The translations under genes were made by a program, and so were the position numbers. A DNA stretch of 64,000 nt from Amoebophrya sp. A120. Taxonomy: Eukaryota > Protista > Dinoflagellata. The notes under the pieces were generated by a model. The model saw nothing but the letters and a program-made list of their open reading frames with translations, did not search any database and was not told the origin of the DNA. The DNA lies in contig CAJINV010000006.1 in NCBI GenBank assembly GCA_905178155.1, positions 316,398 to 380,397 on the forward strand. Direction: 5' to 3'. Positions 7,864 to 31,600 of this stretch are shown here, in pieces; position 1 is the stretch's first letter; each line of letters opens with the position of its first letter.

Positions 7864-8164
7864 CGCCAGGAGCTGCTCGCTCTGGTATCAATCCAGCGGA
7901 CTTTTCTCCTTTGCAAGGAGAAAAGTCCGGACTTTTCTCCTTTGATCCATATCAAAGGAGAAAAGTCGTCTGATCCATATCAAAGGAGAAAAGTCCGACA
8001 TCGCGGACCCTCTGATCCATATCAAAGGAGAAACCCCGATACTTATCACGGACCCTATCCCACCCAAACCTTAGCCACCGAGCTCGTCTCCGCTCTGTTT
8101 CGCAGTGAAGATCAGAAGGAGCTTGCCTCCACTACGTGTTGACGCGGAGATCAGCGGCCGGCTC

Positions 8165-8500
8165 CTAAGGAAGAGATTTCCTATAAAGAAACGCGGAAAG
8201 CCCAGGGGCGAGCGATTTCCTAAAAGAAATCATGCGGAAAACCCGGACGAAGCGATTTCCCAAAGGAAATCATGCGGAAAGCCCAGGAGAAGGGATGTCC
8301 CAAAGAAAATCACGCGGAAAGCCCAGGAGAAGGGATTTCCCAAAAGAAATCACGTGGAAAGCCCAGGAAAGGGGATTGCCCAAAGGAAATCATGTGGAAA
8401 GCCCAGGAGAAGGGATTTCGCAAAGGAAGTCATGCGAAAAACCCAGGAGAAGGGAATTCCCAAAGGGAATCACGCGGAAAGCCCAGAAGAAGGGATGTCC
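8165..8500. repeat. 40-bp tandem minisatellite, about 8 copies
   Basis: Unit approx. CAAAGGAAATCATGCGGAAAGCCCAGGAGAAGGGATTTCC, head-to-tail without spacers. Confidence 0.9.
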
Positions 8501-8845
8501 CCTTCTGAAGGAAATCTCGAGAAGCCCCGACTGCCTAAGTAAGATGTTTGGAAAAGGGGGCTTCTTATAGAGAAAACGAGGGGCGAATGCGTTCAGGGCA
8601 CAAAAAAACGGTCTCCGGGAACAGGACCACTGCTACGGGGCCTCTCCCTACGCTACACTCACCGACCCCCCGCTACATTCGGAGGCAAAAATCGACCTCA
8701 AGACCCGCACCTTTCATGGGCAAGACGCGCCCAGGGTAGCCAGAATGCCCTATGCTAAACACTGCGCGACGGGAAAAACGCCCAGCGCCCTGCCCGAAGC
8801 CATTCTCTGCGCGAGGCCAATCAAAAACGCCTCCGCGGCAAGCCT

Positions 8846-8961
8846 GGGACTTATGGCAGCGGGTGAGCTGTTCCCAGGGTAGCCAGAGTGCACTTAGTGC
8901 ACTCTGAGAGTGCACTTAGTGCACTCTGCTGCCATAAGTCTCACCCGCTGCCATAAGTCCC
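8846..8961. repeat. 22-bp perfect inverted repeat enclosing two tandem palindromes
   Basis: GGGACTTATGGCAGCGGGTGAG (8846-8867) / CTCACCCGCTGCCATAAGTCCC (8940-8961); AGAGTGCACT-T-AGTGCACTCT at 8885-8905 and 8907-8927. Confidence 0.9.
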
Positions 8962-10618
8962 ATAGTGACTATGCTAAACACAGCACTGCGGGAAAAATAA
9001 AAGAAAGTAAGGAACGGCGAAAAAAAAGCGCAACACCAAGGACTCGCGGCACGCCGCCAGCACCCACCACCCACCCTAGGGCAACGCACGGTCCCTCCCT
9101 CGGGTAGCCGGCCCCCCATGTGTCACACACGCGCTGCAACCCGGCAAAGGCCCCACAACGAAATCAGCAGCGCCCACACGATCTAGGGCAGCAAGCAAGA
9201 ACGAACGAAAAACTTGTGGCCTTCGCCGGCCACGCAAGCGGGCGGACGAAATGCGCACGCGCGCGCGGCAGCGCGCGAAGAATTTTTTTTTTCTGGTACA
9301 GGGAACAAGGCCGCGGGTCCGGATAAAATTCCGGGCCACATGCGCATCGTCTTTGCTTTCGCCGTGCCGCGCAAGCAGAGTCAGCACCGCCTCGCGCACG
9401 CCATGCTGCCCCATCTCCGCCGAGCAGCAAATCAGAGCAGGCCCCCCCGCACGCAGAGAAAATAAACGCACGGGGGAAATTGCGCCAGCTCGGTGCGCTT
9501 CCGCGTGCGCGGTGTGCGAAAGAGATCTTTCAGACCCTCCCCCGCTCCCCAAGGAGACGAGGCTAGGCTGCGTGCCTGGTACGCGCGAAAAATACCAGGC
9601 GCCCTCCAACCACACAAGCACGGACATCAAAGGCCGCCTACGCAAAGCGGGTTCTGCACGGGCTTGCCCCCCAAAGAAGGGGCCCCAGGCTGTGTCTGTG
9701 TGCGTTGCGCGCGGCAACTTTTTTGTCGTCCCCTGCAGGCAGGAGGCCTCCGCGTGAACAAAAATCGGGCCAAAAGAAAGAGGGGGCTGGCAGCCAGCGC
9801 GCGCAGCGCGCGAGAAAAATTTTAGGCTTTCCACATGAATGGGAGGGGCCGGGGGGGGCCGCGGGCGCGTGCGGCGCACGGAGAAGAAGCAAGTTGCCCC
9901 ACAAGGAAGGCGCCCGAAGCGTGCCAAATGCGGAGAGTTGAGTTTGTCGAACCCCTTTCGCCCATTTCGAAACCCACACGACCTACGGTTCGGCTGCAAG
10001 AAATTTTCTCCGCGCGCGCAGCGCGCGCCGAGATTTTTTTTTCGGCCCTCCCTGGGTTCCGCTTTTTGCGGGCACCGGATCTGGCTTTGCGCCTTTCTTA
10101 CCTCAACGAGGCATCGCCGCCCGCGTCGGTGCAAAAGCGCAAAACCAAACACAACGCAAAACCCACCACCGAGCCTATCTTCATTCCGAGCAAGGCTTCC
10201 GATAGCCAGCCCCTTGACTTCGGGATGCGGGACCGGGAGCAACGGCAGCCAGAATCCGCCATCCGCCCCCTTCTCGGAAGTGAGAAGGGGGCCGATGAGT
10301 CGCGCAGATTCTTGGTGTATCCGGCGGCCTGAAAAGTATCGTCGCAAGAAATCGACGAAACGCGCACCCGTGCGCCATTGCTTTCATACCTGGTTGGAAG
10401 CCCTTGCACAGGTGCGGGGGCGCAAAAACTACCCCAATTGATTCGCGCGCCCCCAACATAATCATACTGCCAGTCCGACTAACAAGTGCGGAGGTTGGAG
10501 CACGCTACAGAAAATCTGAACGCTAGGGGCGAAATTTGTCCCGGTGCCTTTCTCCGCTGCCACTCCTCACGACAAAGAGCGGGACCAGTCCCCACACCGC
10601 GCGAGCTGTTGCACGCTC

Positions 10619-10718
10619 GGACTTTTTTCCTTTGGCTGGACTTTTTTCCTTTGGCTGGACTTTTCTCCTTGGCAGGACTTTTCTCCTTAGCAGCTTTGAC
10701 TTTTCTCCTTGCGTGATA
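10619..10718. repeat. 18-19 bp tandem repeat GGACTTTT(T/C)TCCTT(T)GGCT, about 5 copies
   Basis: Same core as the GACTTTTCTCCTTTG / AAGGAGAAAAGTC hairpins at 7570-8035. Confidence 0.8.
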
Positions 10719-11322
10719 ATTTATTTTTTTTTTCTGGACCCAGCTCCAGGAGAAGTAGTAGCATTTAAGAAAAAAACATACGCCACATCAAGAAGGCGGC
10801 GGTTTATGAAATCAGTAATTTTCCTACATGCTGTTTATTCCAGTGATTTTTTTTTGTTTTTAAAAAAGTCTAATGAATTTCAATACATAGGTACGTACAG
10901 GCATGATCAGTGCAGAAACAAATAAAAGAATTTCATCACCACAATCAAGATCCACTGAATCACCACAGGGACCGATGTAGATGAGTTCGAGATCATTAGC
11001 ATTGGTCCACGTCGTTCTTGCCTCCCCTAATCTCGTAGTTTTCGCCCCTCCTTCCGGCGTGAAAGCAAAACGTAGTTGGCCCGTCAAAGATTGTTTTTTT
11101 TCCTCTTTACAAGTGTGAAAGCAAAACGAGAATATATCGCCAAGAAACTTAGGTCGAAAATAAAACTTGTATCAAGGGCGGGCAAATTGATATATAGTAG
11201 TTTTTTGTTCGCTGAAGTACCAAATATGTTGAGGAGTTTCTTGATCTAGAGATTCTTCATTCGGTTTTGTTAATGTACAACAATGAAAAGAAAAATCTCA
11301 ATTTCCGGTACTATCTTCACGT

Positions 11323-14300
11323 TCACCCCTCCGTCCAGTCCTCCGAAACTACACAAGATGAACTCTGGCAGGATTCGGGCGTCAAAACATCTGAAAAGGC
11401 TTCCATTTATCAAATGCAAAAATGTCTGGGTCCGGAAGATTCTGAGATTTGTCCTGCATGTTTTGCATGACCCAGGATGTCTGTAATGCACGCCCTAGCA
11501 TCACAGATTTTTAGAGGGCTTCCTGATGCCTCTTCCGCATGACAAACGCCCTCCCCGCGTAGCACACACTAGACTCCCCTTGCTTGTCATGCAATACAGA
11601 TTTTTTTAGAGTCCAAAGTTAGCATCACAAGTTCCAATCTTCCAGACCCAGACATTTTTGCATTTCATACCATTTCCGCGTTCAATGCCTCCTCTTCCCG
11701 CATTTCCTCGTCAATCAATCGGTCCTCCTCGTCCGGGGCAAGAAAAGTTTCGGCTAAATTGCGACCGGACGTGCCCGGAGGGACAAAAATCACAGTGGTG
11801 GAAGAAGTGGTCGCAGTAGTGGTGATGGTGTTTTCACCGTTCTCTTGATTACTATTTTCGAATTGGTCGGTCTTGTCAACATTCTTGTTGTCGTTATTTT
11901 TCGGAGGCTCTTCTTGGTCCTGCTCCTGAACACGCTGCATGGTGTGCTTTTGGAAAATGTCAATCGATTTTCGGATATGAATCGCAAAAGCATCGCACCC
12001 TAGGTAGTACAAATCGCATGACAAATTTTTCAGCATGAAAATATGAAATTTGTAATGCGGACCTAGCTTGAGATAGAGATTTGTAATGCGTGAGTGCGAT
12101 GAAAATTTTGCAGTGCATATCGGATCCGTTTGGCCGATGGGCCGCGGGTTTCTTGTTCCTCTTCCTGCTGTAGTTTTTCCTGGTTAAAAATATTCTTTGT
12201 TAATACGCAGTGGCTCCTTTCGCGGTCGATTTCGTGGTCAACGCTTGTGCGATTCCGCAGCGAAGAAATAATAACGGGTCGTGATGCTGCTGTCGGAGCG
12301 GCAACAATTTCCGCTGCCGGTTGGACCACGTCCAGGGCGGCGGAAGAGGTACTAGTCAAGGATGTACTGCTAGTCGTGCTGGTCAGAGACAGGGTGCTAC
12401 TAACTTGTTGTGTTTGTGGTTGTAGTTCAGTATCGGAAGTAGAAACGACTTCCTGCTGGACAACTTCTGGTAAAGGGCTAAGAGTTGCATTGCTGGATGT
12501 TGCTCCGGTTGTAGTTGTATTCGTGGAGCAAGTAGATGTAGAACAAATCGAACTTTCGGATTCATTTTCTGCTGCAGAGATGGAAACAGTTGCAGTGGAA
12601 GACAAAGTGCTAGTTGTATTGGCCGCCGATAAAGACGATGATGCAGCCGCTGAACTACTTGGTGAAGGTAATGCAGCCGCTGTAGACGATGAAGGTAATG
12701 CTAATGCAGCCGCGGCTGGTACTGAAGATGACGTTGACATCAACGACGTCGATCTGGAAGAAGAACTGGCAGAAGTAGCGGTCGCCCGGTTCCGCTTGTT
12801 GGCGGGAAAATTGGAAGTTAAAATCAAGTTGTTACACGGGACAGAGATGGTCAAATTATCAGAGGTATGCATTGCAAAAGTATCGTAGTAGTATAAATTG
12901 CAATACAAATTTCCTTAGCATGAGAAATGGAATTTATCATGCGGATTTGCCATAGCAAAAAGATTTGTAATGCAAAACTTGCATTCATACGAGTACGATA
13001 CTTTTGCACAGGATAAGAGGTAGTACTCGATGTAGAAGTTGATGAGCTGATGTTGATATTACAACTGCTGGTGTTAGTTGTAGTAGTACCGGTCGTCGAA
13101 GTTGTACTACTAGAAGAAGATGAAACAGGTCCTTGCGGAACAGATCCAGATCCCGACGAGTTTGTTAAAAGCGAAGAGTTGATGTCATTATTTCTCAATT
13201 CTTGAATCGTCTGCACGGTGTCCGCATTACACATTTTTTTCCCCGTATGAAAGTGCACAAAATAACCCTCCTGCCCCCGTTCATTTGTCATTTGAGGTGC
13301 ACAGCTGTTTGTAGCTGCTGTTGGATTTTTGCCTTCTAATGCTACAACCACCCCAGGCGCCTTGCGTCACGAGCTCCTATAGCGCACCGAGCACAACCAC
13401 ACACATTAGTTGTACGAGAGCCAGTTTGTCGAGGCCGTGTGGTTCTTTATGCATTAAATAAAACCGGGGTAACAAGACGATAGTGCGCAGGATCAATCCC
13501 ATAGGCAGTCTGACACAACACCCAGTGACTGTATGCCGACATTGCCTCTTCCTGAGAGACGTTGCGCCTATGACGTTGCACAACCCGCCTCCCTCTAGTG
13601 TCTCGCTAGTCAGTTTGTCCCGTGCCACAATTGTAAGTGCAGTTAAACTTTATTTCGCATGAAGATCTAGTTCAGAAGTTGCAAAAATGCAACTGAAAAA
13701 GATCATGAAACGGGAGGAGTTTTTGTGCACTCTCATAGCGGCCGCGTGCCACTATTACAATGAAAAATGCCCCACCCCCAGCTTGGCAGCATTTGTATTG
13801 CAAACCTTTCCAACAGAAACATGCCCCGTCTTGCATATCTCAGCATCACAGATTTTCCATGCTGAATAGGTCAAATTTGTGTTGCGAAGTAGCCCAACAG
13901 CAGGCGGATCAGTTATGCACAAGGCACCGCGCGCACCCAGATTCTGCATCAGAAACGCTCGCAATCCTTTTATGCAAGACAAAAAGCTTTCATTTGGAAA
14001 CTTTGCATGACAAACTTCTGCAAATTCCGGGGGGGCATTTTTCACTGTAATAGCCACCTCGATTATTTTCCTTTCGCGGCGGAACGGGAGCGGCGTCGGT
14101 GGCCGTGCGTACGCAGATGCGTCACCCATACCCGTTCCTACCGGCAAGGTTATCCAAGAAAAAAACATTGTAGGTGTAACTTTCTTGGAGGATTAGCATG
14201 ACAAATATCTCTCGCATGAAAGCAAAAACCTGTCATGCGCAGATAGTACGGGAAAACGCCGTTGAATGGGCCCTACGATGCATGCCAAGCATGACAGACG

Positions 14301-17300
14301 CAATCCTCTTGCATGTTGCGCATCACAAATTTAAGTTTTTTTCTAGGATAAAGGTGGATGTAGTTGTACTAGAGGTGTTCTTATCAAATGCAAAAATGTC
14401 CGGATGTCTGGAAACTTGTGTTGCTGATACTTGCATTGCAAACTTGCTGCTTGTACGGCATAACAGCATGAGAAATTTCGCGAGGCTTATTCCAGATTCA
14501 TTCGTTTTTAGCATGACAAAGTACCATATCCAGCACGCCAAAAAAACTGGGCAATGGTATTCATGCATTACAGATCTTGTTATCCTTCAAGTCCTGCATC
14601 ACAAATCCAGACCCAGACATATTTGCACTACATATTTCTTCGCCTTTGTACCTCCTGTGTCTGCTGTGGTCGCGGTCGTCGTGTTCAGCACATTCGTTTC
14701 CTTGTTCGTGGTCGAGATATGCATTGCAAAAGTAAAAATATCGCTGTACCAGAACTAGTAGAAGACATCCCATTACAAATTGACTTTAGCACTACAACCT
14801 AGTTGTATTATGCGGATCGATAGCAGAAGCGCCGGCTCTGTAATTATGCACGTGCCACCAATTCCTATGAGTTGACAATACTTTTGCACAGGATATGAGA
14901 TACGAGGTCGTCCACGAAATCCCGGAGGCTGGAGAAATTTTTGTGATGTGTTTTTTCTAAGTATACAGGTGTAGGTTTTATCAATGAAAAAAGCGATACA
15001 TCATGCCGTTCTATGCATCAGTAATTTGAAAAACAATTTAGTAAATCTACCTTCGGTAACGCTTTCATCCGCGCTGCGTAATCTTCTTTCCCTTCCACCA
15101 GTCGCCTTCGATGCCGAAATCTTTCGTCCTTCTCCAATTCTTATCAAATGCAAAAGTGTCTGGGTCTGGAACAAAGCAACTTGCCATCCTGCACCTGAAT
15201 CATGTAAAAATTTGTGTTGCGTGATTACCAAAAGCTGCCCACTTTTGAGCCAATCGAGAGGCGGTTTCTCATGCACGATTAGGCATGATAGAACTCTCAC
15301 AGAATCTGTCATGCTATTTCTTACATACCAGACCTCATGGGTGATGGAAAACCTGCATGACAAGTCTTGCATTCTTCCAGACCCAGACATTTTTGCACTT
15401 GATAATTCTTTCAGCTTTTTCTTCTTCGCTTCTATTATCGACATTGCAAAAATAGTGTCGCACCACTACTACCCGTACGTAGGTTGAACTTGAAGTAAAA
15501 GTATGACAAATTTATCCTTCCGCCAGGATGCAAATTAATCGGAATTTGTAAGTGCGGATTGACCTTTACGCAGAGATTTGTGTTGCATGACTGCAAGTTG
15601 TACTAGTACGAGTTTAATAGCACGATGCTTTTGCAATGGATACCTTCGTCTTTTTCCCCCTCGATTTTCTTCACTCTTTTCTCCACCCTGGCGATGTTCT
15701 TTCGCACGTCGATATCCCGTCCAAAAACATCCACACCCCAGAGTTGTCATGCAATTCTGCATGCCAAAAAGGTTGCTCATGCGGAGCCCTATGAGAAGCA
15801 TTTTCTATGTGTGTTTTGGACTTTGTGATGCTAAAATCAGCATGCTATGCTAGATCTGTGATGCTTCTGAATGAACTAGCTCAATGGGATCACACTACGA
15901 GGACAAACCTGTCATGCCAAACAGCCACAGCTGGTTGATTTGTCTAGCAAATTTCCCATCTTGACTCTGGTGTGGGGACGTTTTTAATCAGGATAGTCGA
16001 ATGGCCGCAAGTGCAAAACCATCTTCGTTGCCTTTTTGTCCGGAAACAATGGGGGTTTCGCGCGTTTTGGGGGCGCGCTGAGCAGCAGATCCGCCTTGGA
16101 CTTTTCTTTGACTTTTTCCTTGTTCGGCTTCAACTGCGGCTCAGGGAGTGCGTTCATAGGAAGAGATAAAGAGGAGCTTGAAGAACCACTGCTGGTGCCA
16201 TTAGTTGTAGAAGTAGCACCTCCATCTCCCGATTGTAGTAGTGGTGAAGAATTCTGTTTCGGTTTCGGACCCTCATCATCGCTTTCCGATCGCTTTTTCA
16301 AGAAGGGCAGCATGAAGGGTTTCTTGGGTTGTGGTTTGGTTGGTTTCGCGTCATCTTTTTTCACCTCCTTGGGGGATTTTTTCGACTTTGGCCGCGAAGA
16401 AGATTTTGGCGGAGAACAAAGTGTCCGCTTTTCGTCTTTTTGTTTATCGTCGTGGTCCAGTGTCGTGGAGGTCGATAAAGGTAGCGGAGACGATGCTGAT
16501 CGTGTAGTAGTCACAGAATTTGTTGTGCCGCTACTCAAGGAAAGTAATTCGTTTTCCTGGTCGGTTGTATTGCGTGCAACTACTGGTACATTCGAAGACA
16601 GTGAAAATACACTGTTGCTGTCGTCCGTGGTCGTGGTCCCAGTACTAGGGGTCGATAACGTTGCTGGTTGTGGGGCCTCCTGTGTTTCTAAAACCGGTAC
16701 TTCTGCACCACTAGCGCCATCATCCTCTTCGGGAATACTGAAGAGGTCCGTCGCCAGCGGGAAGGACATGGACAATGCGTTGGAAAATAAATTACACGAG
16801 GCATCAAAAGGAAAAATCCCCCCTCCCCATATCAAAAGCAAGTGTCTGATGCTGGATTTGCGTACACAAATCAGCTTTGTACTGCAGAGAGGCATTGCGG
16901 GCAGATCTCCAGGCTCGATAGGGGCGTATGTGTCTAGTTGCTCAGCATGGCAAAGGGCTCCCCTTTAGGCTCAACAGCATGACAAATCGCCTCCGTAATG
17001 GGGCGAAAGCTCCTGGCCTTGTCTTCTTGCAAGATGAATATGATTTGTGACCTCAAATCAGCAACACAAATTTTCGGAAAGATACCTTTTCGATATGGGG
17101 AGGGGGGATTTTTCCTCTCAATACGAGGAACTCGAGCTGCTGGATGATGAACTGGACGATGAACCGCTGCTACTGGAACTGGACGAAGAGAAAAAAGAAC
17201 TGAAGGAACTGGAGGAAGCACTACTGTTCGAAGAAGAGCTACTGGAAGAAAAAGAGCTGCTCGAAGAAGAGCTGCTCGAAGAAAAAGAAGAAGAAGAGCT

Positions 17301-20300
17301 GCTCGAAGAGGAGGAAGCTGCTGCACCACCAGATGAAGAACTGCTACTCCCGCCAGTCATGGTCTCTTCAGAATTATTTTCCTCTTTGATGTTGTTCTCC
17401 CCATTGGAAAACAACGAGGACCCGCCAAACGACGCAGCAATTTGTATGGTGTTCTCAACTGTTACATTCTCAACTGTTACATGAATTTGTGATGCAAGAA
17501 TGGCAACAGTCAAACAGGCAAGCTTCCTGCTTTCGCATCACAGATTTGGCACAGATTTAGATGCTATTTAGCCTCTCGGATATTTGTCATGCGAAGCAGC
17601 TTGATCATCTGGCGGCTTAAGGTAGTCTTGCATGACAAATTCATGTAACAGTTGAGAATGTAACGTTTGAGAACTCCATAATTTGTTCCTGCATAGCCAC
17701 GTCGCGATCAAGTTGTTTCTGTTCCTTCTTATGCATTGCAAATATGTCTGGGTACTCTGGAGAAGTGCAAGGTTTGTCATGCTAGGCCAGCACGACTCTT
17801 AAGTCTGTCACGCACGTTAATACCCAAAAACCCTATTTCTCTGTGATGCAGAAACGCAGTTTGTCATGCAGAATAGACATCACTTAGAAGCTCAGAAACT
17901 TGTCATGCTGAGCCATCATCTGTGGCCTCCACATGCTAAGTCACTCAGCATTACAAGTTTCCAGACATCCAGGGATATTTGCATTTGATACTTCTCCAAC
18001 ATGGTTAAAAACTCTTCATTATGCTGTGCAAAAGTATCGTACTCGTATAAATGCAGGTCTTGCATTACAAATTTCTTTATCAAGGCAAATCAGCATTACA
18101 AATTTTATTTCTCATGCTAAGGAAATTTGTAATGCATTTATACGAGTACGATACTTTTGCAGTTCATATTCATGCTCGTCATCCTCCGCGGGTAGAATGC
18201 CAATAATCCCATTTCCAAACCCAACCACAATATCGTTGGCTGAAGTGACCGGCGACGCGATGTTCTCGTCATCTGACAAATTATTATTTTCCTCGTCCTT
18301 GTCATTGCTTATGCTTTTCGGAGGAGGAGGTGACGGAGGAGGTGACAGGGGTCTTTTCGGGTTTTTGTTTCTCACCGCCGTCGGCGTCTTGTCGTTTTTC
18401 ATTTTCTCCTCGTCTTCCCCTCCACTGTCCGCCCGACTTTGCTCTTCCTCGCTATCCGAACCGGAAGAGGAGGTCAAATGGTACCAAGTCGGACTAACAT
18501 CTTCATCGTCACTGAAGTTACAAGTGTCTCGACGGTTCATCATCTTTTCCGGGTCAATCAATTTCCCTTTGCAAATCTTGGCCGCCGGCAGCAGCGGAAA
18601 CTTCTTCTTGTCTAGCCGAATAGTCGTCCCCGTATTGGGCGCGGGGAGCGGAATCTGGATTTCGTAGTCGGTTTTGGACACGTCGTTCGGAATCTTCTCG
18701 TTGTTTTGCAGTTCTAAAAAAAATTTTGCACCAATGCTGTCGCCCATCTCCACCCGGTACACCGGGGCGGGGCCGTCAGAATCGTCTTCGTCGGGCGTTG
18801 GGTAGCAGCGACGAGTACTCAAGTATCAAAAGTAAAAACCCACCCACCCTAGATCAAAATTGAAATCTGTGATGCTGAATTGTGGCCACAAGTCAGCTTT
18901 GTCATGCTAGAAGGGAAGTAGAGATGCGGACTGTAGTGCTGGCTAACGCAGGAACGCCTTACGCCTTCAGCATGACAGGAAGCAACTGGAAATAACGGGA
19001 AACAGCACGACAAATTGCCTCCAAACACGGGAACACCTGCCTCGCTTGGCCTTCTAGCAATATATTTGTGTACTCAAATACAGCAACACAAATTTCGTTT
19101 ATCGATATGGGGAGGGGGGATTTTTCCTCGCAGTATCAACCGCTTTGGCTTCCTTGTCTCCGTATCCCCAATCACGTCCCGGTATCCCGAAGCAATTTGC
19201 CAAAAAGAACTTTTCTCAATTTCTTTACGGACCTTTTTTCGCTTTTGCTCATCCGCAAGCTCTTGCTGGTACTCCTCATCGGTCATGCGGCCGAAGAGCT
19301 GCTCCTGGTCCTGCTCCGGGGAGTTATTGTTGTTGTTGTTCGCGGTGCTGGTGCTGCTGTCATCTCCTTTTTTGTCCGCCACCTCCTGGTTATTTCCATT
19401 GTCACCTCCAGCTGCGCTAGATGAACCTGCCACACGTTCTTGCGCGTTCTCCGCACTTCTCTTGCCCTGCTGCGCCTGCGTCCTCTCCTGCGGCTCCACA
19501 GGAACAACTGGGCGGTCGGTATTTGTTCCGTTATTTTCACCATCTCCCGCAGTGGAAGTCGCTGCTGCAGCCGCTGCTGCTTCTCTCGCTTTCTTCTCCG
19601 CTATATCAAGTGTAAAAATGTCTGGGTCTGGAAGATCAAGATTCTGACACTTGTCATGCACGTTTTGCATGAGTCATGATGTCTGTGATGCATTCCCCAG
19701 CAATACAGATTTTTTGAGGGCTTCTTGATGCGTATTCCGCATGACAAATGCCATCTCAGCGTAGCAAAAATTGCATTTCCTTTGGTACTCATGCAATACA
19801 GATTTTTTTGGAATCCAAATGCAGCATCACAAGTTGCATTCTTCCCGACCCAGACATTTTTACAGTTGATACGCTATCAATTGTGCGAACCTCCCATTCG
19901 GATGGAATCCGAAGTCATCATCGTCATATCAAATGTATTCCACAGAAAAAGACCGACAGGTCATATTTGTAATGCAAAAATAAATACACAGGAAAATCTG
20001 TCATGGGCGAGGCCATAGCATCCTGTTTAGGGCATGCAATACAGATTTTTTTGTCTATTTATTTTTGCATTACAAATATGACCTGTCGGTCTTTTTCTGG
20101 GGGATAAAATGCAAATATGTCTGGGTCTGGAAACTTGTAATGCTGAGTTGTGAAGAATAGTGACTGCTCTGTAATGCACAACCAAGCATGCGAAATTTTT
20201 GCACGGCTAAGTGCTGCGTTTTGTGAATGACAATTTGTGTTTTTGCATGACAAGCAAAAGAGGTCTCTTCTTCAAAACGCATCGCAAACTCTTCAGTCAT

Positions 20301-23300
20301 GCCAGACAAGCATGACAAACCTTGCATCCTTCCAGACCCGGACATATTTGCAATGCATACAACTGAGCGCTTCCTCTTTTCGTCTTCCCCTGGTACCTTA
20401 CCCGCTGCCGCTAATCTCGCTAGATGCTCCGCCTTTAATTGTGCGAGTCTCCCAGGCGGGGTGGGTGGACTGAGGGAACGACGATATCAAAGGTAAAAGT
20501 GTCTGGGTCTGGAAGATTGCCAGGTTTGTCATGCACATTTTGCGTGACTCCTGATCGATCTGTGATATGCATGCCCTAGCATCACAGATTTTGTGAGGGC
20601 TTCCTAATGCCTATACCGCATGACAAATGCTCTTTCCGTGTAGCAAAATTTGGACTCTCTTTGCTGCTCATGCAATACAGATTTTTCTAGAATCCAAAAT
20701 CAGCATGACAAGTTGGATTCTTCCAGACATCCAGGGATTTTTACAGTTGATAGACGACCGTCGTCGTCGTCGGTGTTGGCGTTTTTATTTCGGGGCCGCA
20801 GGGTATCCCAGGAAAAAAGTGTTACAGTTACACATTGGTTGGGGTTTCTGCATCACAAAGTTGCTCGACATGGCAAAGAAAACCTCTGATGCGCAGACTA
20901 TAAGGCAAAACACGAATGAAATGCGGTTTGCAAGCATTTTCTGCATGACAGAGCTTGTCTGTCTTGCTAGTCTCCCACCAGAGTGCGTAACTATAAACAC
21001 TTTTTTCCCACGATACAGGGCTTGCTTCGGAGCTGCGGAGGACCGACCGCGAGTTGCAGACATCGTGGACGTTGTTGCGATCGGAGAAGATAACTGGGAG
21101 CTGCAGGTGCTTCCAACATTAACACCATCGCTGCTACTCCCTGCGGTACCGGTACTAGTTGTGGCAGAAGAAGCTGCTCTCGTACTAGTAGTACAGCTAC
21201 CCCCTTGCAGGCGCTCCTCGGGGTTAGTATTCAAGTTTAGGTTTGGCGGTGTATTGCTATTGTTTTTGTCAGTGTCACCCGCGGCGCGCTTACCTCCCGA
21301 AGAAATAACGGAGGGCGAGTATTGAGAGGAAAAATCCCCCCTCCCCATATCGAAAAGGTATGTTTCCGAAAATTTGCGTTGCTGATTTGAGGTCACAAAT
21401 CACGTCTGTCTTGCAAGAAGACAGGCGCAGAGGCTTCCACACCATTATGGAAGCGATTTGGCATGCTGTTGCGCCTAGGGGGCACCAGCAGGGGGGATTT
21501 TTCCTTTTGATAGCGAGGAATAACGTGATGAAAAACTCGGATTTTTTTCACCGCTGCTACCTGCTGAGGATGCGGTCGACGGCGTAGTTGTCTCCGGTTG
21601 TTGTAAACAAATGTTGTCCGTCGAACTCGAAGTAGTGTTGTCTACTTTTCTGTTGGTATCTTTACTACCACCTGACAGAAGGGAAGAAGATGCAACAGGG
21701 GCATCAGCATTGTTATTGCGGCCTTTACCTCCCCCAGGACCAGGAGTAGCAGAAGTACTGCCCGATAAGTGATCTGGGCTTGCGTTCTTCCTTTCACCAA
21801 GTTCTTGTTGTGGGACAGCAGTAGAACGGCCAGTATTACCACCGCCCGGAGATACCGCCGCGTCAGAAGAACGACCGCCAGTATTTTTACTTGCACTTCC
21901 CCCCAGTCCGCGCGGTCCACATTTTCCCAATCCTTTCTTGCAGACGTACGGTGGCGGCCGCTCGCCGGGCCGTCGCGGTCGCGGCCGGATGGGGGGCATG
22001 GGAGGAAACACGTTGGGGAGAGGCAAAACTTCATCTGTGATCGTACTATCTCTAGCTGCTGTGCCTGGAGTTGATGTTCCCGGTGGCTCTTGCGCGACTT
22101 GCGGCGCAGAAGGGAGAGTCACCGGCTGTACAGGAACTGGTCCAGCAGGAATTTGCTGCGATGCGGCCGGAGATGAGGGCGCAACTTCTACGGGGGTAGG
22201 AACTACTGGTCCAACGGGCTGCTGCGACGCGGCAGGAAAAAGCACCGGCGCCTGCCGGTTGTTTTTCCGTTTCGGGACCACGATGTTGTTGGTCATCAAG
22301 GTGGCAGAAGTTCTTGTTGTGCTGTTGGTACTAGTAGCAGTGGCGGTGTCCGTTGCGCCGTTCTTGTTTTGCCCCGTAGCTCTACTTTCGTCTCCAGAGC
22401 GGCTGGGTATCGTCGACGTCGTGTCCAGTACCGGGGCGACGACAACGTGATTATCGTTTTCGGTAGCCGATGACGTTTTGCTGTCAACCGGCACAACAAA
22501 CGATGCCGCAGTACTATCTTCCGGCGCAGGAGCAGCTGCGTTGAATCGGGAGTAAATATCAGAGCTGGTGGTCGTGGATTTCTTTTCTTCGCTCCCTGCA
22601 CCGGTGGAAGGACCATCTCCACCGCCAGGAGCAGCGCCGCTATCTTCCTGCTGCTTCTCCGAAGCCGAAGGAGGTTCACCAAGGTCGAATAAACCGGTCG
22701 AAGAAGTAACCGCATCTCCCGCCGTACTAGGAGAAGATGAGGCAATTGCAAGAACTGCAACACTCGGCAGTTCCTCTTGTAGCTGACGTTCATTTCCGTC
22801 TACAAGTTCGGGAGGAGCGGTCAAGGGTACAAGGCTCTCATCTCCTGCTGGCGGGTTGAGTAAGCTGTAGTTACAAGTTGTAGGTTTGTCCACCTTGTCG
22901 ACGTTTTTGGTGGTTTTCTTGTCGGTCTTCACTCCATCTTGGTTGGACGAAGTAGTAGTTGTTGGCAACTCATGTCGTGGTTCCACTGACAAGGAAGTTT
23001 CATCTTCCGCCTTAATACTCCGGGGTAACGAAGATTCAGTTTTGCTTTTCTTTTCCGCTAAATCGAAATCGTGATGTTCATCCGCCTGATCGTGTACCGG
23101 TGCTGCAGCATGGGTGGCAACGCACGCGTTATTCTCCTTAAAATCCACAACCCCACCGCGTCCGTCGGAAAGGATGTTCTCTGCTGGTGTTTTTTCCTGA
23201 AAAATCCGAACTGGTTCATCTTCGTCCCCCTCCAACGGTAACAAAGTCTCCTTTTTCTCCACCATTTTTTCCACGCGGGGCTGAAACTGGGTGGGCTGGC

Positions 23301-26009
23301 AAGCTGCAATCTCGTTTTGGTCAAATGAATCCGACTTGACGACGTCCTGGACAAGAACTGGCTCGGGTTCCTTCTTTTCGTTAGAATTTTCCACTTTTTT
23401 GGCAGCGCAGGAGCTTCCACCAGTTGGAATATTACCTGCTTGTTCCAAATGTACCCGGTCCACCTCCTTGTTCTCCTTTTTCTTTTCCTCGACCTTTTTC
23501 GAACTACTTTTGACCCCCTCCAACAGTTGCCTCTCAATTTGCTGCTTCAACTCCGCCTTTGCTTTGCTTACACTTTTATCCTGTGCAAAAGTTTCGTACC
23601 CGTTTCGTATGAATGGAAATGCAAGTCTTGCATTACAAATCTTTTTCTGAAGGTAAATCCGCATTAGAAACTTTATCTCTCATGCTGAGTGAATTTGTAA
23701 TGCATTTATACGAGTAGGAGGACGATACTTTTGCAGTTCATAGCTTTCCTCGTACTCGGCTAGTGTGTAGGTTCTGGACAAGTCGATCCCGCTGGGCACG
23801 TAGGTTAACTTTGCATTTGGCTGAGCTGGTGCGCCGTTAAGTAGATTTGGATGGCGGTCTCGTTTATTTTGACTCGTTTTACTGTCGTTCAACATCTGCA
23901 CACGGTTATTTTCCTTCTGCTCTTCACTCGTCTCCGCGGAGTTGCCCTGGTCGTGCTGCGCCGCAACCGGTGCGGCCAAAGCCTGCGCTTGGCTGAGAAA
24001 CATTGAAAAGTGAAAGAAGCATATCACACCAAAAATAAACGTATAGTGGTTCTCCGATACCGATTCTATGCGTCTCGAACTCGAGCATGTTGGATTTTAT
24101 CAAGTATATCATTCGTTGCTTATGAACTACACAAGATTCTACACAAATAAACATGAAGATTTTCTTGACGATACTATGCGCAAAAAATCTCGTCGTCCAC
24201 AAGTACTACACACATCAAAACCACAGTTCTGTACCGATCCTCCCACTGTCCTGGTCCACGGCGATTCACCTTTCCCTGTTTCACTTTCTGTCGGTTCTGC
24301 TTCAAGACCCGCAAGTGCGCACTGCAATACAGCTCCTCCGGGTTGGAAACGTGCATGAAGTCCTCGTCGTCTGCTGTCAATTCTATAACCGGGGGTTTGC
24401 TGGGAGTTGTGTAATTTTCGTCTTCATCGGAGTTGATTTCTTCTTCCTTTAATATTCCGTCGTCGTGTAGGAAATTTTTGTTTCGGCGTCCCACACGACG
24501 ACCAACAACCGTGTTTTCTAAATCCAAATCCATCTTGTCGGTAGTAGTGGTAAAAGAACCTCCCACGACAGGGACAGCCTGTGAAGAAAATGAGTTGTTC
24601 AGCATTTTTCGTCCGGCGTCCTTATCCCCCCGTTCTTGTTTCATCCGTTGATCATCATTTTCATTCCGGGCTAAAAAAGCCGCTACAAAATCCTCTGCTT
24701 CGGTCGATGTTTTGTGTTGTTTTTTAACACCAGATTTCTCCTCATTGTCGTTGTGGTTGATGCCCATGCCCTGCATCGAATATGCATTGCAAATATCCAC
24801 TCTGGATGTGTATTGGAAATGAACTGCAACTTGTCATGCGAAATCTGGATCCGACGCAAATAACTCTGTGTTGCATGAATACCAAAAGTTGTGGTCCGCT
24901 TTTGAGGACCACTGGTTGAGAGGGAGTTTTTACTTCTCATGCAGGATATTGGGCATGATACAGATCTCACAGAATCTGTCATGCTAGGTCCTGCATGATT
25001 CATCCAGCCCTCGTGGCTGATGGTAATCCTGCATGACAAGTCTTGCATTCTTCTAGACGCTTCTAGGAATTATATTTGCAATGGATACCAAATTCGTCAA
25101 AAGATCGTCGATCGTCATCTCGGTAGCTGCAATTGTAGTTGAATTTTTCCGGTCAACATTTTCTAAATTCTTCTCATCTGTGCTAGTAGTTGTGTTTACA
25201 GTTGTCAAAGTGGTCATCGCTACTTCCGAATAAAAATTGCCCTTCCTCCTCCCGTTCTCATCCAGTTTTCGATTCGTGCGGTTGGTTCTTTCATCGATAT
25301 CCTCAACCATCGGTGGCCGCCGCTTCAGGGAGGTAGTTGAGAGTTGTTGTAGTTGTTGGTCCTCCTCCTGTCCTGCTTGCACCCCCGTTGTATAAAAATT
25401 ACTGTTGTAGTCGTTGTGCAAAAGCGACGCCGCGCTACTATTGCTTTGATGTGATGCCTGCCCCGGGCGGATGAAGCTTGGAATAGAAGAACTCCCTGCA
25501 TCTGTGTTCATCTTCTCGTGTTTGTCACTGGGAAGGTTGCCCTGCGCTCGTCGCAGGTCTAACAAAAACGAAACCAGAGCAGCCTCGGGAGCGAAACTGC
25601 TGGTAGTGCACTTTGTAGGTCTACTACTTCCGGGGTCATGTTTCATCTGTAACACGGCAGGAGCGGGGGATTCTTCGACAGCAGGGGGTTCCTGCTCACC
25701 GCTCGGTTGGTTCTTGGGTTGTTGTTTATTTACTAGGCTGTTTTCAACATCATCTTGGGTAGTAGTTGTTGTTTTTTTGGACGAACTTGACGTGGTCCCA
25801 CGATCATCTCCTGCATTTGCTGGCTGTGTCGTGGACGAGTCGTGTGATACAATCGGTGCTGCAGCCCGGGTGGTCGTTTTCGTTGAATTGCTCAAGGTGG
25901 ATTTGGGGTTGGCGGCTTTACTAAGGGTAATATTGTCGGTCTGATCCTCTACATCCAGCAGGCATGGCGGATTGGGTACCGCTGCCGGCTTCGCCGGAGA
26001 CTCAGGCAT
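11323..26009 (-). CDS. Large Ser/Thr/Pro-rich hypothetical protein split by about 24 introners and at least 2 GT-AG introns
   Basis: Starts MPESPAKP at 26009. Frame restored by removing element plus 5 nt at tested junctions: RYSS|PSVISS (21320), QAL|RPRN (20804), KRSV|DDDF (19927), TTS|DNLTIS (12866), KRIR|KSIDIF (11976), NAEM|EAFSD (11408) ending WTEG-TGA. Not all junctions tested, so it could be more than one gene or extend further 3'. Confidence 0.6.
11408..11669. mobile_element. Introner family A
   Basis: TAT..ATA TIR; DR CCATT. Confidence 0.9.
11976..12119. mobile_element. Introner family B
   Basis: DR TCGGA; frame restored. Confidence 0.9.
12866..13015. mobile_element. Introner family B
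   Basis: DR AGAGG; frame restored. Confidence 0.9.
13246..13737. mobile_element. Introner family D, enlarged
   Basis: TATGAAAGTGCACAAAA...TTTTGTGCACTCTCATA; no DR; about twice the usual length. Confidence 0.6.
13753..14052. mobile_element. Introner family G
   Basis: TATTACAATGAAAAATGCCCC TIR; DR GCCAC. Confidence 0.9.
14151..14350. mobile_element. Introner family J
   Basis: DR AAGGT; similar to 53025-53252. Confidence 0.85.
14382..14634. mobile_element. Introner family A
   Basis: DR GTTCT/TTTCT (4/5). Confidence 0.85.
14718..14895. mobile_element. Introner family B (diverged)
   Basis: DR CGAGA/TGAGA (4/5). Confidence 0.8.
14929..15050 (-). other. Probable canonical GT-AG intron
   Basis: Minus strand AAG|GTAGAT...TTTCTCCAG|; AT-rich; frame not tested. 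Confidence 0.6.
15142..15404. mobile_element. Introner family A
   Basis: DR ATTCT. Confidence 0.9.
15433..15642. mobile_element. Introner family B (diverged)
   Basis: DR GCTTC/CCTTC (4/5). Confidence 0.75.
15713..15995. mobile_element. Introner family F
   Basis: DR GTCGA. Confidence 0.9.
16802..17123. mobile_element. Introner family C (left end CAT)
   Basis: DR CGAGG; internal orientation opposite to 21320 and 33410 copies. Confidence 0.9.
17445..17680. mobile_element. Introner family H
   Basis: DR ATTTG. Confidence 0.9.
17730..17990. mobile_element. Introner family A
   Basis: DR CTTCT. Confidence 0.9.
18020..18168. mobile_element. Introner family B
   Basis: DR TTCAT. Confidence 0.9.
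18824..19135. mobile_element. Introner family C (diverged, right end GTA)
   Basis: DR TCAAG/TCAAC (4/5). Confidence 0.8.
19604..19871. mobile_element. Introner family A
   Basis: DR CGCTA. Confidence 0.9.
19927..20359. mobile_element. Introner family A carrying nested family K element
   Basis: TATCAAATG interrupted at 19936, resumes AAATGCAAATATGTCTGGG at 20107; outer DR poor but frame restored. Confidence 0.85.
19936..20106. mobile_element. Introner family K nested in TIR of an A element
   Basis: About 50-bp TIR TATTCCACAGAAAAAGACCGACAGGTCATATTTGTAATGCAAAAATAAATA; DR AAATG. Confidence 0.9.
20485..20752. mobile_element. Introner family A
   Basis: DR GACGA; frame restored. Confidence 0.9.
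20804..21015. mobile_element. Introner family E
   Basis: DR CAGGG; frame restored. Confidence 0.9.
21320..21512. mobile_element. Introner family C, internally deleted
   Basis: DR GCGAG; empty site with single GCGAG near 2959. Confidence 0.9.
23577..23742. mobile_element. Introner family B
   Basis: DR ACTTT/GCTTT (4/5). Confidence 0.85.
23993..24060 (-). other. Probable canonical GT-AG intron
   Basis: Minus strand GTATCG...TGTTTCTCAG with pyrimidine tract; frame not tested. Confidence 0.55.
24781..25087. mobile_element. Introner family A (diverged)
   Basis: TATGCATTGCAAATAT...ATATTTGCAATGGATA; DR 3/5. Confidence 0.8.
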
Positions 26010-26321
26010 GGTTTGGGTTTTCTGGGTTGAATTTTTCCGGTAGTTTTATTTTGTCGCAATTCTATGTTTGACTCTGATGTCTCTTTTACTTTCTACAAAT
26101 AAGGAACAAAACCCGATGAAACATGTGAAATAAAGTTTGTATTCGACCGTTACCAGTCGTGGCACGCAAGAACAGATCGACGCAACATGGGTAATTATCA
26201 TTATGCGAGCGTGCCGGCACGCTGATGATTTATATTTAATAATTTGTAGTATGTATGTTTTTTTTCATCAGGAAATAAGCCGTCCGTGATTTCTTTCACA
26301 TAGGCCCAGAAACTGCTGGAC

Positions 26322-29300
26322 TTAGAAGAGGAATCCAGGCTGCTCGCCGTGACGGTTACAAGCACTTAAGCACACCACATCAATCTCCGCAACAATGCTA
26401 CCAGGTAACCAGTTGCTCAGCGGGACTTGAGTATCAATATACGGAAAACAGCAGGCAATCTTTTTTGGCATTCGCAGGGAACACTTACAGAGGACAACTC
26501 CCAAAACAGCAGGCTCGTGACATTCACAGATACACCTTCCCAGGCGGCGCGCCATCTGAGGAGAGAAACCACGCCGGCCCGCCGCGGGCGGGTGCGAAAA
26601 CGCTGCGGCCTGCGTACGAATGCACGGCGCCGCGCTGGCTGACTTGCTTCCAAGGCCAACGGGCGGGCCACCTCGCTCACTGAGGCTGGCCAGCTCGGCA
26701 CGCCGGCAGGACACAAGCGGGCGGCCACTCATCTCCAGGGCATGGGCGTGCCACGCCCCCCCCCTGGCGGGGGGGTGGCGAGGGGCCCTCGCGGGCGGTG
26801 GTGGCGAGAATGAACCAGCGCCGCCAGCCGGCAGGCGGTCCCGGACCGCCTGACCGGACCGGGTCCGGTCAGGTCTGCCTTGCGAGCGACCCGGCATACC
26901 TCGCAACGCGGAGAGGGAGCCTCCGCGCTGCCGGCAGCGGGGCGGGGGGGGGGGCCAAACTACCCAAAGCGCCGCCCCGCCGGGGGCGCTGCACACGGTC
27001 ACGGCGCTGCCCTTGCTCGGCGTTTGCAGCGGCCCGCTCTCGTGCTTCCGAGCTGGGCAGCATGAACAAAACCCACCACACAAGCCGCACGGGTGCCGGG
27101 TCCTATGCCCGTCCCAGCGCCAGGGGAGCACGGGCGCCGAATCGCATGGCGGGCCCGCTACCACATGCCTGCGGGCAGATGCCGGCCGGCGCCTTTTCGA
27201 CGAGCCCGGCAAGGGGCGCGGCTGACGGCGCAGGGCGCGCGCAAAGGGGCCGCGAAATCCCGCGCGCGCGGGGCGGGGTACTCAGGGCGGGGCGCCGTGC
27301 GCGTGGCCCGACACTCCCACAGGAGGGCGCGGGCAAACCGCGCCCGCGCCCTACAAATAGGCGCGGGGCGCGCGGGCCCGCCGCCCAGTCTCGCGGCCTC
27401 CGCTCAACTCGATCACGCGCGCGCGCCCCTCGGCATGCCCGTCGTCGACACTGTTGCCGGGGCCGCGCGCGCATCTGGAGCGCGCTGCATCACGCGGGCC
27501 GTGCACATCTTGGGCGTGCTGCACTTGATCCCGCGCGCCGCCCCGGAGCTATTTCGGCGCCTTTCACCGGAGCTATTTCGGCGCCTTTTATTTCGGCGCC
27601 TGATTCCGCCCGCCGCATTCACTCGCGGCCCCTGTTCGAATGGCATCAAGTTACAAGGTAGCAACTTTGCCCGCTGCTGGTTCATTTCGGCAGGATTCAT
27701 CTCCGTTCAATGTATGTAGAAATCTCTGATGAACACCACGCACCTCTTCGCGTTTGGGACGAGACAAAAACGTAGAAATAAGTTCATCTGCATTTTAAAT
27801 TCTCTTCGACGACGAAACTTCAATTAATCTTCGGTGCTGGGAGCTGTGTAATTCTCCCATGTTATCCACAGCTCTATCTTTAATACGACTTTTGCGGCGG
27901 CAGAAGCACCGGTTTTTTTAGTACTTATCGACCAGCACATCAATTGCGTTTCTTTCTCTTCTTCTTCTTCTTCTTCTTTCTCTTCTTCCAATCGGTGAAT
28001 TCAACAAAGTGCAAGTCTTGCAGGGTTCCTATTTGCGAGCAGCGACTACAAGAAGTCTACGACGAATTATACAATGTTTATGTTGAATGATGTCGTCCAC
28101 CTACGCTACTTATGTAAAATCAGAATCGGAAAGAAGAAAGCTGACTAAAAACGGATGGGATTCATACTTAATTTCATTTCTGATAGCCGGCACTGATCTT
28201 TGGAAAAAAAAGCTCCGCTACTTCTAAGCAGTGTCGTGAGAAAAATACAATCACTCAGTGTCTCAAGAGAGTACACGACCACGACAGCGATCACGTCGAC
28301 GACCTCTACAACATCAATAAGGAAGATGAACCAACGCCACTCTATACATCGCCACCAACCTTCCTGCTCAGCATCATCATTTTTATCTCCGCCGACAAAT
28401 TTTGATGCCTTAACCACGACCCGTGCATCGGCATCCCCAAGAACTCCCCGCCGAGGCCGACCCACTAATATCTGCATCAAGACCATTCGCAGCTCGGCAT
28501 TCTTATTTGTATATTGTGCAACATCTTCTCCTCAAAAACCTCCCGGTTGTTTTTTGCGTCGCCAACAACCGTGTTTGCTGTTTCCACTTCGCTTTTGTTT
28601 CATTGTGGTTCGTCGTGGTCGGTGTAGTTTGTTTATTGGGTTTTTCCGCACAGCCTTTCTAATAGAAAAATCGCAAACCTTGGGTGGAAGGTTCTTCCCT
28701 TGGGATCGTCAACATCCAATTCCGCCCCTAGCAGCTGGTTGTTGAAATTCAACATCTACGGAAATTTTCATCTCGATGTAGTTGTAGGAAAGTGGTTAGT
28801 GGTACTGGTTAGAGAGGGTTTGCAAGTTGCTGTTCATCGTAGGTGTTGAGAAATTCTAAATTTTTTGTTGTTTCCCCGTCCTGGGGCTGGGTAGTTGTAG
28901 TGGATTTCCATCCTCATCTACCTCCGAAACCGTGTGGCCACTTTCATCCGTATCTACCAACAACTCCTCCACCGCTGTTATTTAGTTGATCTCCGCTGTC
29001 ATTTTCATCCTGGGTAGTTGATTTTTTTTGCACCCGCTCGTCGCCCCAAGATCTCCTGCATCTGCTGGTCGTTTAGTTGACGAATCGCGTAATACAATCG
29101 GTGCTGCGGCCCGGGTCGTAAGCTCTATTATTTGCATTTTGGTTTCAAGCACGCGCAATTGAAGTAAGGGCAATTAAGGTTGTCTTTAACCGTTAATGCT
29201 GTTACTGTTATACACAAAAATAGATCGGATCGAAGATAATTACGCGAGTGACAGCCGCGGCTGCGCGCTGGTCTATTGCTTTGCGCTGTTTCTTTTTTCT

Positions 29301-31600
29301 CTGGAATATAATTGGATACACCGTGCGCGACTTGTGTCACAGCTGCTATGTTGAGAAGAGGAATCCAAGCGCCCCAGCTCATCATCGTCTTTCTTAATGA
29401 AAGGCATATAGAATGACAGAACGCAGTCACATCTAGCTCCGCAACAACGCTAGCTACCGGCCGTGGATATTCATTACGGACAACAGCTGCCGGCAAATTT
29501 TTTTGGCAGGGAACACTTACAGAGGACAAGTCGCCAAACATGCTGGCGACATCGATTGATACATCTTTCAAGGCGGCGCGCCGGCCATTAGAGGAGAGAT
29601 GCCACGCCGTCCCGCCCCGGGCGGGCGGGCGCGAAAAAGCTGCGACCTCCGTATGCTTGCGCGGCGGGCGCCGCACTTCCACGGCCAGCCGGCGGGCAGA
29701 CTGCAGCAGGGCGCAGACCACAGGCGGCCGGGGTGTTCGGTGGGCAAGGCTGGCCACCCTGGCAAGGCGGGCCAGCTCGGACGGCGGGCAAGGCCGGCGG
29801 CAGGCCCAGACAGCGCAGGGCACGGGCGAACGGCCCTCGCTAATTGATTGCCAGGGGCGCACCAAGCAAGGTAGGCGGCCGGCCCCCGCGGACATCGGCG
29901 GGCGGTGCTATTCCGCGCAGGCAATCGCCCGGGCAGCTACTGGCGCCGCGCCGCCCGCTTCTGTGGCCGCCCCGAAGGGCGGCCAGGCTGTCAATATCTG
30001 TCGCTGGCGCCCTCTCCTTCCTCCGGAACGCCCTGCCGGCGTTCCAGCAACGTTCCAACAACGGGCAGTCCCAGTTCCGAGTCAAACGGCCGGCCCGCTT
30101 TCATTTTCTTGCGGGGCGGCCAGATGCCGGCCGGCACCAACCTTGTCGAACCCCCCGGCAAGGGGCGCGGCGATGTCGCCGCGCGGCGCTTGGCAAGCGG
30201 GCGCCGCGCCTAGAAGGCCCGCCCAGGACTGTCGGGGCAGGCGGCGCGCAAAGGGGCCGCGAAAGCCCGCGCGCGCGGGGCGGGGTACTCCGGGCGGGGC
30301 GCCGGGGGCGTGGCCCGATATTCCTGCAGGAGGGTGCGGGCAAACCGCGCCCGCGCCCTACAAATAGGCGCGGGGCGCGCGGGCCCGAAGAGGGGGCGAC
30401 ATCAAGTTACAAGGCAGCAACATTGCCCGCTGCTGGTTCTCTTCGGCCGGACTTGTCTCCGTTCAATCTATGTCGTATTCTCCGAACACCACGCTCCTCT
30501 TCGCGTTTGGGACGAGACAAAAACGTAGCAACAAATTATCGTCGTTCTAATTTCTCTTCGACGACGACGACGAAACCTCCTCAATCTTTGATTATTCGGT
30601 TCTGTAGCGGTCGAATTCTCCCAAAACTCATATCACTAATACCACTTTTGCGCCAGCAGATGCACCTGTTTAGTACTTATCGACCAGGAGCACATCAATC
30701 GCGTTTCTTTTTCTTTTTGCAATCGCTATATAAATGCAACAAAGTTTCTATTTGCGGACAGTGCCAACAAGTCTGCGAATTTACAATGTTTTTATTGTTG
30801 TTCACCTATGCAGCTACGTATGTAAAATCAGAAGCGGAATAAAGAAGAAAGCTCACTACTTAACGGAGGGGGTCCCGTTTTGATAGCCGGCACTGATCTT
30901 TGGAAAAAAAAAGCCGCGCTGTTATCAAGTAGTGTCGTCAGAAAAATAGAATCACTCAGTGTGTTAAGAGAGTACAGCACCACACCAGCAACCACGTCGA
31001 CCTCTACAACATTAATAGAGAACCAACGTTACCCTTATACATCATCACCAACTACCCCTCACACCATCATCATGATCTGCGCCGATCTCAACCACGGCTC
31101 GCGCATCTCCACGACCCTCGTGCGCGTCTTCTAAAAAAGGTGCCAAAGCACAGCTCCCTTTCTTGTGCGCCCCCTTTGCATGCTTAACCTCCGATTCCGG
31201 CCAGGTACTAGTAGCTGCGCCCGTAGTTGGTAGTTGAAGCGATGTGCTGTTCGTGGTAGTAGCTGAGAAAAAAAATGTGTCTCGCATCAACCTCCGTTTT
31301 TAGTTGAAACTAAACACCTTTGTTTTTTTTCATCTCGTTGTAGTTGTAGGAGAGTGGTTACTGGAATTGGTAGTGGTTGAAAAGAGGGTTCATTGCGAAG
31401 ACGGCGCAACTTGCTGTTCATCATAGTAGTTGGGGTATTCGGTAAAAATCTTGTTATTTCCTCGTCCTGAATAGTTGTAGTGGATTTCCATCCTCAGCTG
31501 CCTCCGAAACCGTGTGGTCATTTTCATCTTCCGTATCTACCAACAACTCCTCCGGTGTTATTTCACACGCGTCTTTCATCTTGGGTAGTTGATCTCCGCT
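26322..31600. repeat. Diverged tandem duplication, about 26322-29010 vs 29352-31600, each with a GC-rich island and decayed coding fragments
   Basis: Collinear anchors: AGAAGAGGAATCCA (26324/29354), CGCGCCCTACAAATAGGCGCG (~27345/~30352), GGGACGAGACAAAAACGTAG (~27756/~30509), TGATAGCCGGCACTGATCTTTGG (28181/30881), TAGTTGTAGTGGATTTCCATCCTCA (28892/31472). Confidence 0.85.

Follow-up and report, generated by a model that had tools for sequence, protein, structure and literature searches.

More than 60% of the introns of the Amoebophrya strains A25 and A120 lack GT-AG ends, and the parts of the genome report drawn on here state that U1 small nuclear RNA (snRNA) was not found and that the splicing mechanism is unknown (PMC7789003). 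The introners of A120 are described in the same text as carrying a terminal inverted repeat of TAT, 7 variable nucleotides (nt) and at least three A residues, with a direct repeat of 3–5 nt (Farhat et al. 2021, PMC7789003). Introners within introners have already been reported, in passages on the alga Micromonas CCMP1545 (Verhelst et al. 2013, PMC3879977). In Euglena, the nonconventional introns, for which an origin from miniature inverted-repeat transposable elements has been proposed (PMC3935182, in part), follow the code N3CDG / CHG N5-6, and the length of their 5-nt acceptor spacer matters experimentally according to the sections cited here (Nomura et al. 2025, PMC12501133). Amoebophrya introners, nested Micromonas introners and stwintrons (spliceosomal twintrons) with verified intermediates are all already known. 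Here we describe a locus in a 64,000-nt stretch of Amoebophrya sp. A120 DNA (contig CAJINV010000006.1, positions 316,398 to 380,397; referred to below as the window) at which an introner of one family, K, lies in the 3' arm of an introner of another family, A, and where likely-RNA contigs skip the nested unit as a whole. The features of the site, numbered within the window, are these:

19936-20106, minus strand: inner introner, K, 171 nt, with TAT...ATA ends and arms identical at 48 of their first 50 positions
19927-20359, minus strand: outer introner of family A, with TAT...ATA ends, 257 nt once K and one AAATG are taken out
19931-19935: left copy of the K target-site duplication, AAATG, read from the sequence
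20107-20111: right copy of the K target-site duplication, AAATG, read from the sequence
19927-19935, minus strand: final 9 nt of the outer 3' arm, severed from the remaining arm by K
19922-19926, minus strand: 5-nt spacer past the outer ATA, which goes with the intron and matches the upstream 5 nt at 2 of 5 positions
53293-53548, minus strand: closest un-nested sibling of the outer element, 82.6% identical over its length to the K-less outer element

K sits 9 nt inside the terminal inverted repeat of the outer element, with the coordinates and letters that the original prediction gave for it, and the AAATG duplication around K likewise lies where it had been placed. Removal of K plus 5 nt restores the outer arm exactly, and 29 of the first 30 nt of the K-less outer element agree with many family ends. 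Given the minus-strand orientation of the host gene, the arm of the outer element that K interrupts is the 3' (acceptor-side) one. Moreover, the outer element's own duplication is broken (CGTCA on the left, CAACT on the right), its 2 of 5 matching positions being the lowest value in the window. K belongs to a young family, and we infer that the outer element inserted first and K later. Judged by the letters of their ends (TAT, 7 variable nt, A-run), both K and the rebuilt outer element fit introners of the Amoebophrya A120 type, and the locus is a member or near member of that class. (Note that the original prediction was right about the nesting and omitted the broken outer duplication, the minus-strand orientation of the gene and the second in-frame exit that K provides, which corresponds to a removal of 429 nt.)

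Four sequencing runs (X3 to X6), all from one sample of one study, were taken to be RNA, which is a guess and not on record; they consist of contigs, which lose rare forms and cannot reveal intermediates. The joints in these contigs define the following features:

19922-20359, minus strand: compound intron of 438 nt skipped by contigs (the outer element with K, plus 5 nt; joint 19921^20360)
20360-20479, minus strand: upstream exon, 120 nt, from contig joints
19872-19921, minus strand: downstream exon, 50 nt, from contig joints
19604-19871, minus strand: adjoining A-family introner, joint 19598^19872, 273 nt (268+5), in 4 of 4 runs
20485-20752, minus strand: adjoining A-family introner, joint 20479^20753, 273 nt (268+5), in 2 of 4 runs

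The joint 19921^20360 is found in X3, X4 and X6 (three of the four likely-RNA runs; X5 has no piece there), which argues that the whole nested unit leaves the transcript. It has a 1-nt ambiguity, such that the transcript ends of the removed unit read TA..CG or GT..AC, in either case non-GT-AG. In X3, a contig of 5388 nt joins the exons and contains two further joints at element plus 5 nt, together with a 69-nt sum that fits three other elements. Removal of the 438 nt leaves KRSV-DDDFGF open, as predicted; the continuation into LIAEKK that had been included in the same predicted frame also needs 19604-19871 to be taken out. X1, a DNA-like run identical to the window, has contigs that run from exon into element without differences at neighbouring elements and covers 30 of 30 bins; the cover of X3 is uneven and extends to 27 of 30. 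Because X1 keeps these exon-element borders, the joint in the likely-RNA contigs most likely reflects splicing rather than loss of DNA of the kind seen with internal eliminated sequences (IESs). (Note that no listed X1 piece spans the exact nested site, and that summed X1 depths were not used as copy number.) Among the six joints listed, none corresponded to removal of K only (19930^20107 to 19935^20112) or of 429 nt (19930^20360), which is no counter-evidence given that contigs lose rare forms, and positions 19963-20064 have no contig cover in the likely-RNA runs. Three joints with sides of 20–23 nt (20132^20327, 20153^20241 and 20359^20500) were discounted as probably derived from copies elsewhere. 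The raw RNA runs X9 and X10 (65 partial reads of another element copy; 0 reads) were uninformative on the nested site.

A scan for the K arm gave 15 loci (metagenome matches), of which five are full standalone copies of K that agree with it at 168–170 of 171 nt (98–99%), each with its own perfect 5-nt duplication. The other 10 of the 15 matches share only 20–28 nt with K, appear chance-like and were dropped. One of the five siblings (170 of 171 nt) interrupts the gene for RPL26 (Pfam PF16906):

L007:2940-3863, minus strand: RPL26 gene with two TAT...ATA introns, intron 1 being 372 nt

When the K copy and the first intron are removed from this gene with 5 nt extra each, the product is identical to P0001, an annotated protein attributed to Amoebophrya sp. 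A120, which points indirectly to Amoebophrya as the likely host of these elements. That the K family is spliceable alone is thereby supported, for the RPL26 sibling and through an annotated protein. Position 19939, which lies 4 nt from the transcript 3' end of K, is the sole difference between K and its closest siblings (in L007 and L009); the change there may have weakened the K exit or may be due to chance. (A search of viral contigs for the A-arm pattern gave no match.)

In the window, an element and the 5 nt downstream of it are skipped together at five joints. The nested site retains its upstream 5-mer and loses the downstream one, with its 2 of 5 matching positions. Likewise, the 5-mers on the two sides of RPL26 intron 1 match at only 1 of 5 positions, yet removal of the element plus 5 nt yields the annotated protein. 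The fact that 5 nt are removed at both of these sites argues that a direct repeat is not needed, and it is likely that the 3' cut is set by distance from the closing ATA, namely 5 nt, or 4 nt with a donor one base earlier. Frame alone permits 2, 5 or 8 extra nt at the nested site, and the contigs give 5. (Removal of 435 nt via a 2-nt repeat would keep the frame but differs from the joint found.) While K is in place, the removed unit can end in frame either 5 nt beyond the ATA of K (429 nt) or, 9 nt later, 5 nt beyond the outer ATA (438 nt); the contigs use the outer exit and not that of K.

We consider it on balance probable that the usual route is inner-first, K being removed before the outer element. 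After insertion of the outer element, substitutions or an in-frame deletion would have erased its downstream duplication, and a K copy would then have been pasted into the outer arm, making the 5-nt duplication. The splicing machinery would take its 5' site at TAT, or 1 nt before, and would find its 3' site by a distance of 5 nt (or 4) from the closing ATA of that element, ignoring the direct repeat. K is an intact substrate, the whole of which has been transcribed 14 nt ahead of the outer 3' site; it would leave first with its 5 nt and so rebuild the outer arm, and the 262-nt remainder would next be spliced as the neighbouring introns are. It is possible, if less likely than not, that this order is obligatory, in which case the pair would be a hairpin-ended, non-canonical twintron with a 3' site set by a ruler that ends 5 nt past the ATA closing the donor-paired element; because the ruler would be set by whichever element is paired with the donor, the outer intron would not be correctly cut before K leaves. 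K interrupts the 3' arm and parts the T-run from the ATA, which together form a putative signal for outer excision; the exit of K carries a T-run, and the outer exit regains one only once K is gone. In folding predictions under six settings with K present, the outer TAT has a pairing probability of 0.01–0.57 with the outer ATA and of 0.00–0.76 with the ATA of K, and the outer TAT-ATA pairing rises to P 0.90–0.99 when K is removed (0.15 with K and 0.98 without it in a separate fold). If the order holds, the locus would be an acceptor-side twintron in function.

Several observations weigh against this reading or are neutral. The main stem of the outer element (positions 8–30) is predicted at P near 1 even with K in place, and forcing the outer end pairs costs 1.2 kcal/mol, a value below that of 12 of 75 other elements folded alike. 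Element 18824-19135 is skipped in X3 despite a predicted end pairing near 0, element 17730-17990 has an end pairing of 0.09 (its skipping fits by the length sum only), and element 17445-17680 has no T-run. Moreover, the arm mismatches of 64 of 80 elements include 73 G-U and 74 A-C on the transcript strand, and with no bias for G-U over A-C these counts give no indication of selection on RNA pairing. Gaps near the ends of the arms are present in 16 of 80 elements. Finally, the inner-first order is a deduction, and the four runs come from a single sample and were only guessed to be RNA.

These points lend themselves to an alternative that is possible, if rather unlikely, namely that the 438-nt unit is one intron removed in a single step, with K a mere passenger that is either looped out as a closed hairpin or passed over when exon-side signals pick the last ATA plus 5 nt. 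Single-step removal predicts the identical 438-nt joint; the outer stem forms with K present, a three-way junction with paired outer ends lying 1.2 kcal/mol above the ensemble, and low end pairing, absent T-runs and small arm indels are tolerated in other elements, one A-family element (in L005) even bearing a loop insert of ~130 nt. Such a mechanism must nevertheless bypass, 9 nt upstream, the intact in-frame exit of K, whose predicted pairing with the outer TAT is about as good, and must leave the 5' site of K unused, even though a near-identical copy is taken out of RPL26 in the annotated protein. Very improbable, in our estimation, is the idea that the outer intron is now a spliceosomal intron of the GT...AC kind, defined by donor and acceptor and with hairpins that are irrelevant. 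The 1-nt ambiguity of the joint does permit intron ends of GT (5') and AC (3'), and the downstream 5-mer is over-diverged (P ~0.002 at the mean rate of the window, 0.04 at 17% divergence); the cut nevertheless falls exactly at the element plus 5 nt position, there is no enrichment of G in front of TAT (17 of 79), and both U1 and the minor spliceosome are reported as undetected in these strains in the text consulted (PMC7789003).

The original prediction had likened the nesting both to twintrons and to nested IESs. An IES-like, inner-first elimination of DNA, in which the skipped contigs would represent rearranged DNA, appears scarcely credible to us. Terminal inverted repeats and target duplications do mark DNA transposons, and X3 to X6 were only guessed to be RNA; against this, X1 passes from exon to element without differences and covers 30 of 30 bins, X3 joins exons and has uneven cover of 27 of 30, and the element class was published with RNA-seq-supported junctions, as set out in the sections of that report cited here (PMC7789003). 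The twintron is the better of the two analogies, and that with nested IESs finds no support in the X1 contigs or in the published introns with RNA-seq support. The locus lies outside the ciliate-type IES class, given the exon-element borders that X1 keeps at neighbouring elements, and outside the class of U2 stwintrons as well, neither K nor the outer element having GT-AG ends.

The preferred inner-first reading concerns one of only two nested elements that a junction test identifies among 80 in the window (K and 60557-60818), as compared with an expectation of ~14–20 nestings under random sequential insertion. The second case is as follows:

59673-60842, minus strand: outer element of the second nesting, with an A-family element (60557-60818, AGTAC duplication) 20–24 nt inside its donor-side arm

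Both nestings lie in end arms, and at the second the host frame is open after the whole unit plus 5 nt (1175 nt) is removed. The outer element 59673-60842 also carries a GC-rich insert of ~760 nt. A direct repeat of 56 nt flanks it (59617-61119), the left copy of which is intron-free and the right copy of which holds element 60889-61104, and the spliced frame of this region has gained a 17-residue tandem repeat. Apparent nestings at L006 2177-2952 and at 733-1074 of the window look like separate adjoining elements and were rejected. In L005 (2262-2660), the ~130-nt loop insert of the A-family element is apparently bounded by a 9-nt duplication, which suggests a different kind of insertion. The paired-end unit at 13246-13737 (492 nt), which contains a further TAT-like start at 13569, can be removed whole with 5 nt without loss of the frame, although its limits are provisional.

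The working list comprises 80 elements in addition to the outer one, some 31% of the window (68 from a search, 1 of which was dropped, and 13 added by hand). The search favoured or required TAT/ATA ends for most elements, and old or large nestings can escape the finder; the dropped candidate, 7222-7459, is likely a false pair. Pairs of TAT...ATA with a perfect 5-nt duplication number 52 in the window and 0–1 in each of 20 block shuffles. The duplications of the 79 other elements match at 5 of 5 positions in 61, at 4 in 13 and at 3 in 5. A residues occupy positions 11–13 in 67–70 of 79 elements (note that the search itself required TAT/ATA for most), and a T-run lies 11–15 nt from the element end in 72 of 80. 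Eight elements deviate in an end triplet. In six of them the change affects the transcript 3' end, where ATG or AGA, for instance, replaces ATA, and in the remaining two the 5' end reads TAC:

16802-17123, 18824-19135, 53293-53548, 41821-41976, 50008-50306, 51961-52069, 35365-35644 and 57275-57491: elements with changed end triplets

The first two of these are skipped in X3 at element plus 5 nt. Genes are packed with elements and the element-free stretches have no obvious genes, a strong exon bias; no listed element starts in 4600-11300, 25100-33300 or 54200-57000, which are partly GC-rich. Tandem repeats with 21-nt and 40-nt units occur near 7650-8540, inside the first of these stretches, and an orphan element end is present at 54367. 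The region 37900-38720 contains a cluster of short TGTCATGCA-type repeats and an orphan element end at 38255, and is perhaps a decayed or longer element. The few nestings and the exon bias together fit either insertion aimed at exons or exon edges or the loss of most nestings.

Removal of each element with 5 nt opens long minus-strand frames across the window. The host frame of the nested pair is one of them:

15606-24096, minus strand: host frame, 1776 codons from stop to stop after removal of 12 elements with 5 nt each

The host protein is of low complexity, its largest exon has no Pfam match, and the transcript contig likely continues below 15606. By their translations, 3250-3700 and 21500-21860 are near-identical low-complexity coding stretches in two genes. 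A long gene at 34997-52096 (minus strand) is split by dozens of elements and contains WD40-like and coiled-coil-like stretches, with a weak beta-propeller match (E 0.036); we take it to resemble a ciliary WD-repeat protein.

The locus constitutes a natural test: of its two in-frame 3' exits, which are separated by 9 nt, only one has an intact arm, and the position of the cut is fixed by the broken repeat. It separates models based on the direct repeat, on end pairing and on a ruler, and it asks whether introns made by transposons impose an order on splicing. The broken-repeat sites suggest that the repeat is dispensable and that a 5-nt acceptor spacer is used, of the same length as in Euglena. 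If removal occurs in a single step, the site amounts to a nested transposon insertion of an ordinary kind and is of modest interest.

Elements within elements that are removed from the inside out are found among the group II/III twintrons of the Euglena chloroplast and the nested IESs of ciliates. The former are catalytic organellar introns and the latter DNA-level excisions, neither of which is indicated here. Within Amoebophrya, literature searches and look-ups of the available text (PMC7789003, PMC12130899, PMC11282704 and bioRxiv 2020.10.14.339549; open text, as distinct from subscription journals and figures) gave no nested introners and no removal order; the word "nested" is absent from the main and supplementary text of PMC7789003, a search that covered text and not figures S19–S25, which may bear on splice position. 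With the A120 introners as described in the portions cited (PMC7789003), the elements here have in common TAT ends, 5-nt direct repeats, a length of ~240 nt, co-oriented genes, removal at the RNA level and high density. Beyond that account, the two broken-duplication sites reported here pin the removed unit to the element plus 5 nt, to within one base. The nested introners of Micromonas belong to another alga and another element class, and the passages that report them are silent on removal order and on insertion into an end signal (PMC3879977). In the nested pair, as in the fungal stwintrons characterized in the sections cited of PMC8469720, the inner intron lies at or next to an end signal of the outer one, this signal would be restored by removal from the inside out, and copies proliferate; stwintrons are canonical U2 introns with verified intermediates, whereas the pair described here is non-canonical and hairpin-ended, with an order that is deduced (PMC8469720). 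The likeness to the nonconventional introns of Euglena, on the parts of PMC12501133 considered, consists of 3-base motifs that are complementary and lie close to the two ends, together with a 5-nt spacer that precedes the 3' splice site. The Euglena motifs are CAG/CTG with a 3-nt spacer on the donor side, whereas the nested site has TAT/ATA with 0 or 1 nt (PMC12501133), and because the two lineages are unrelated, this likeness would be convergent.

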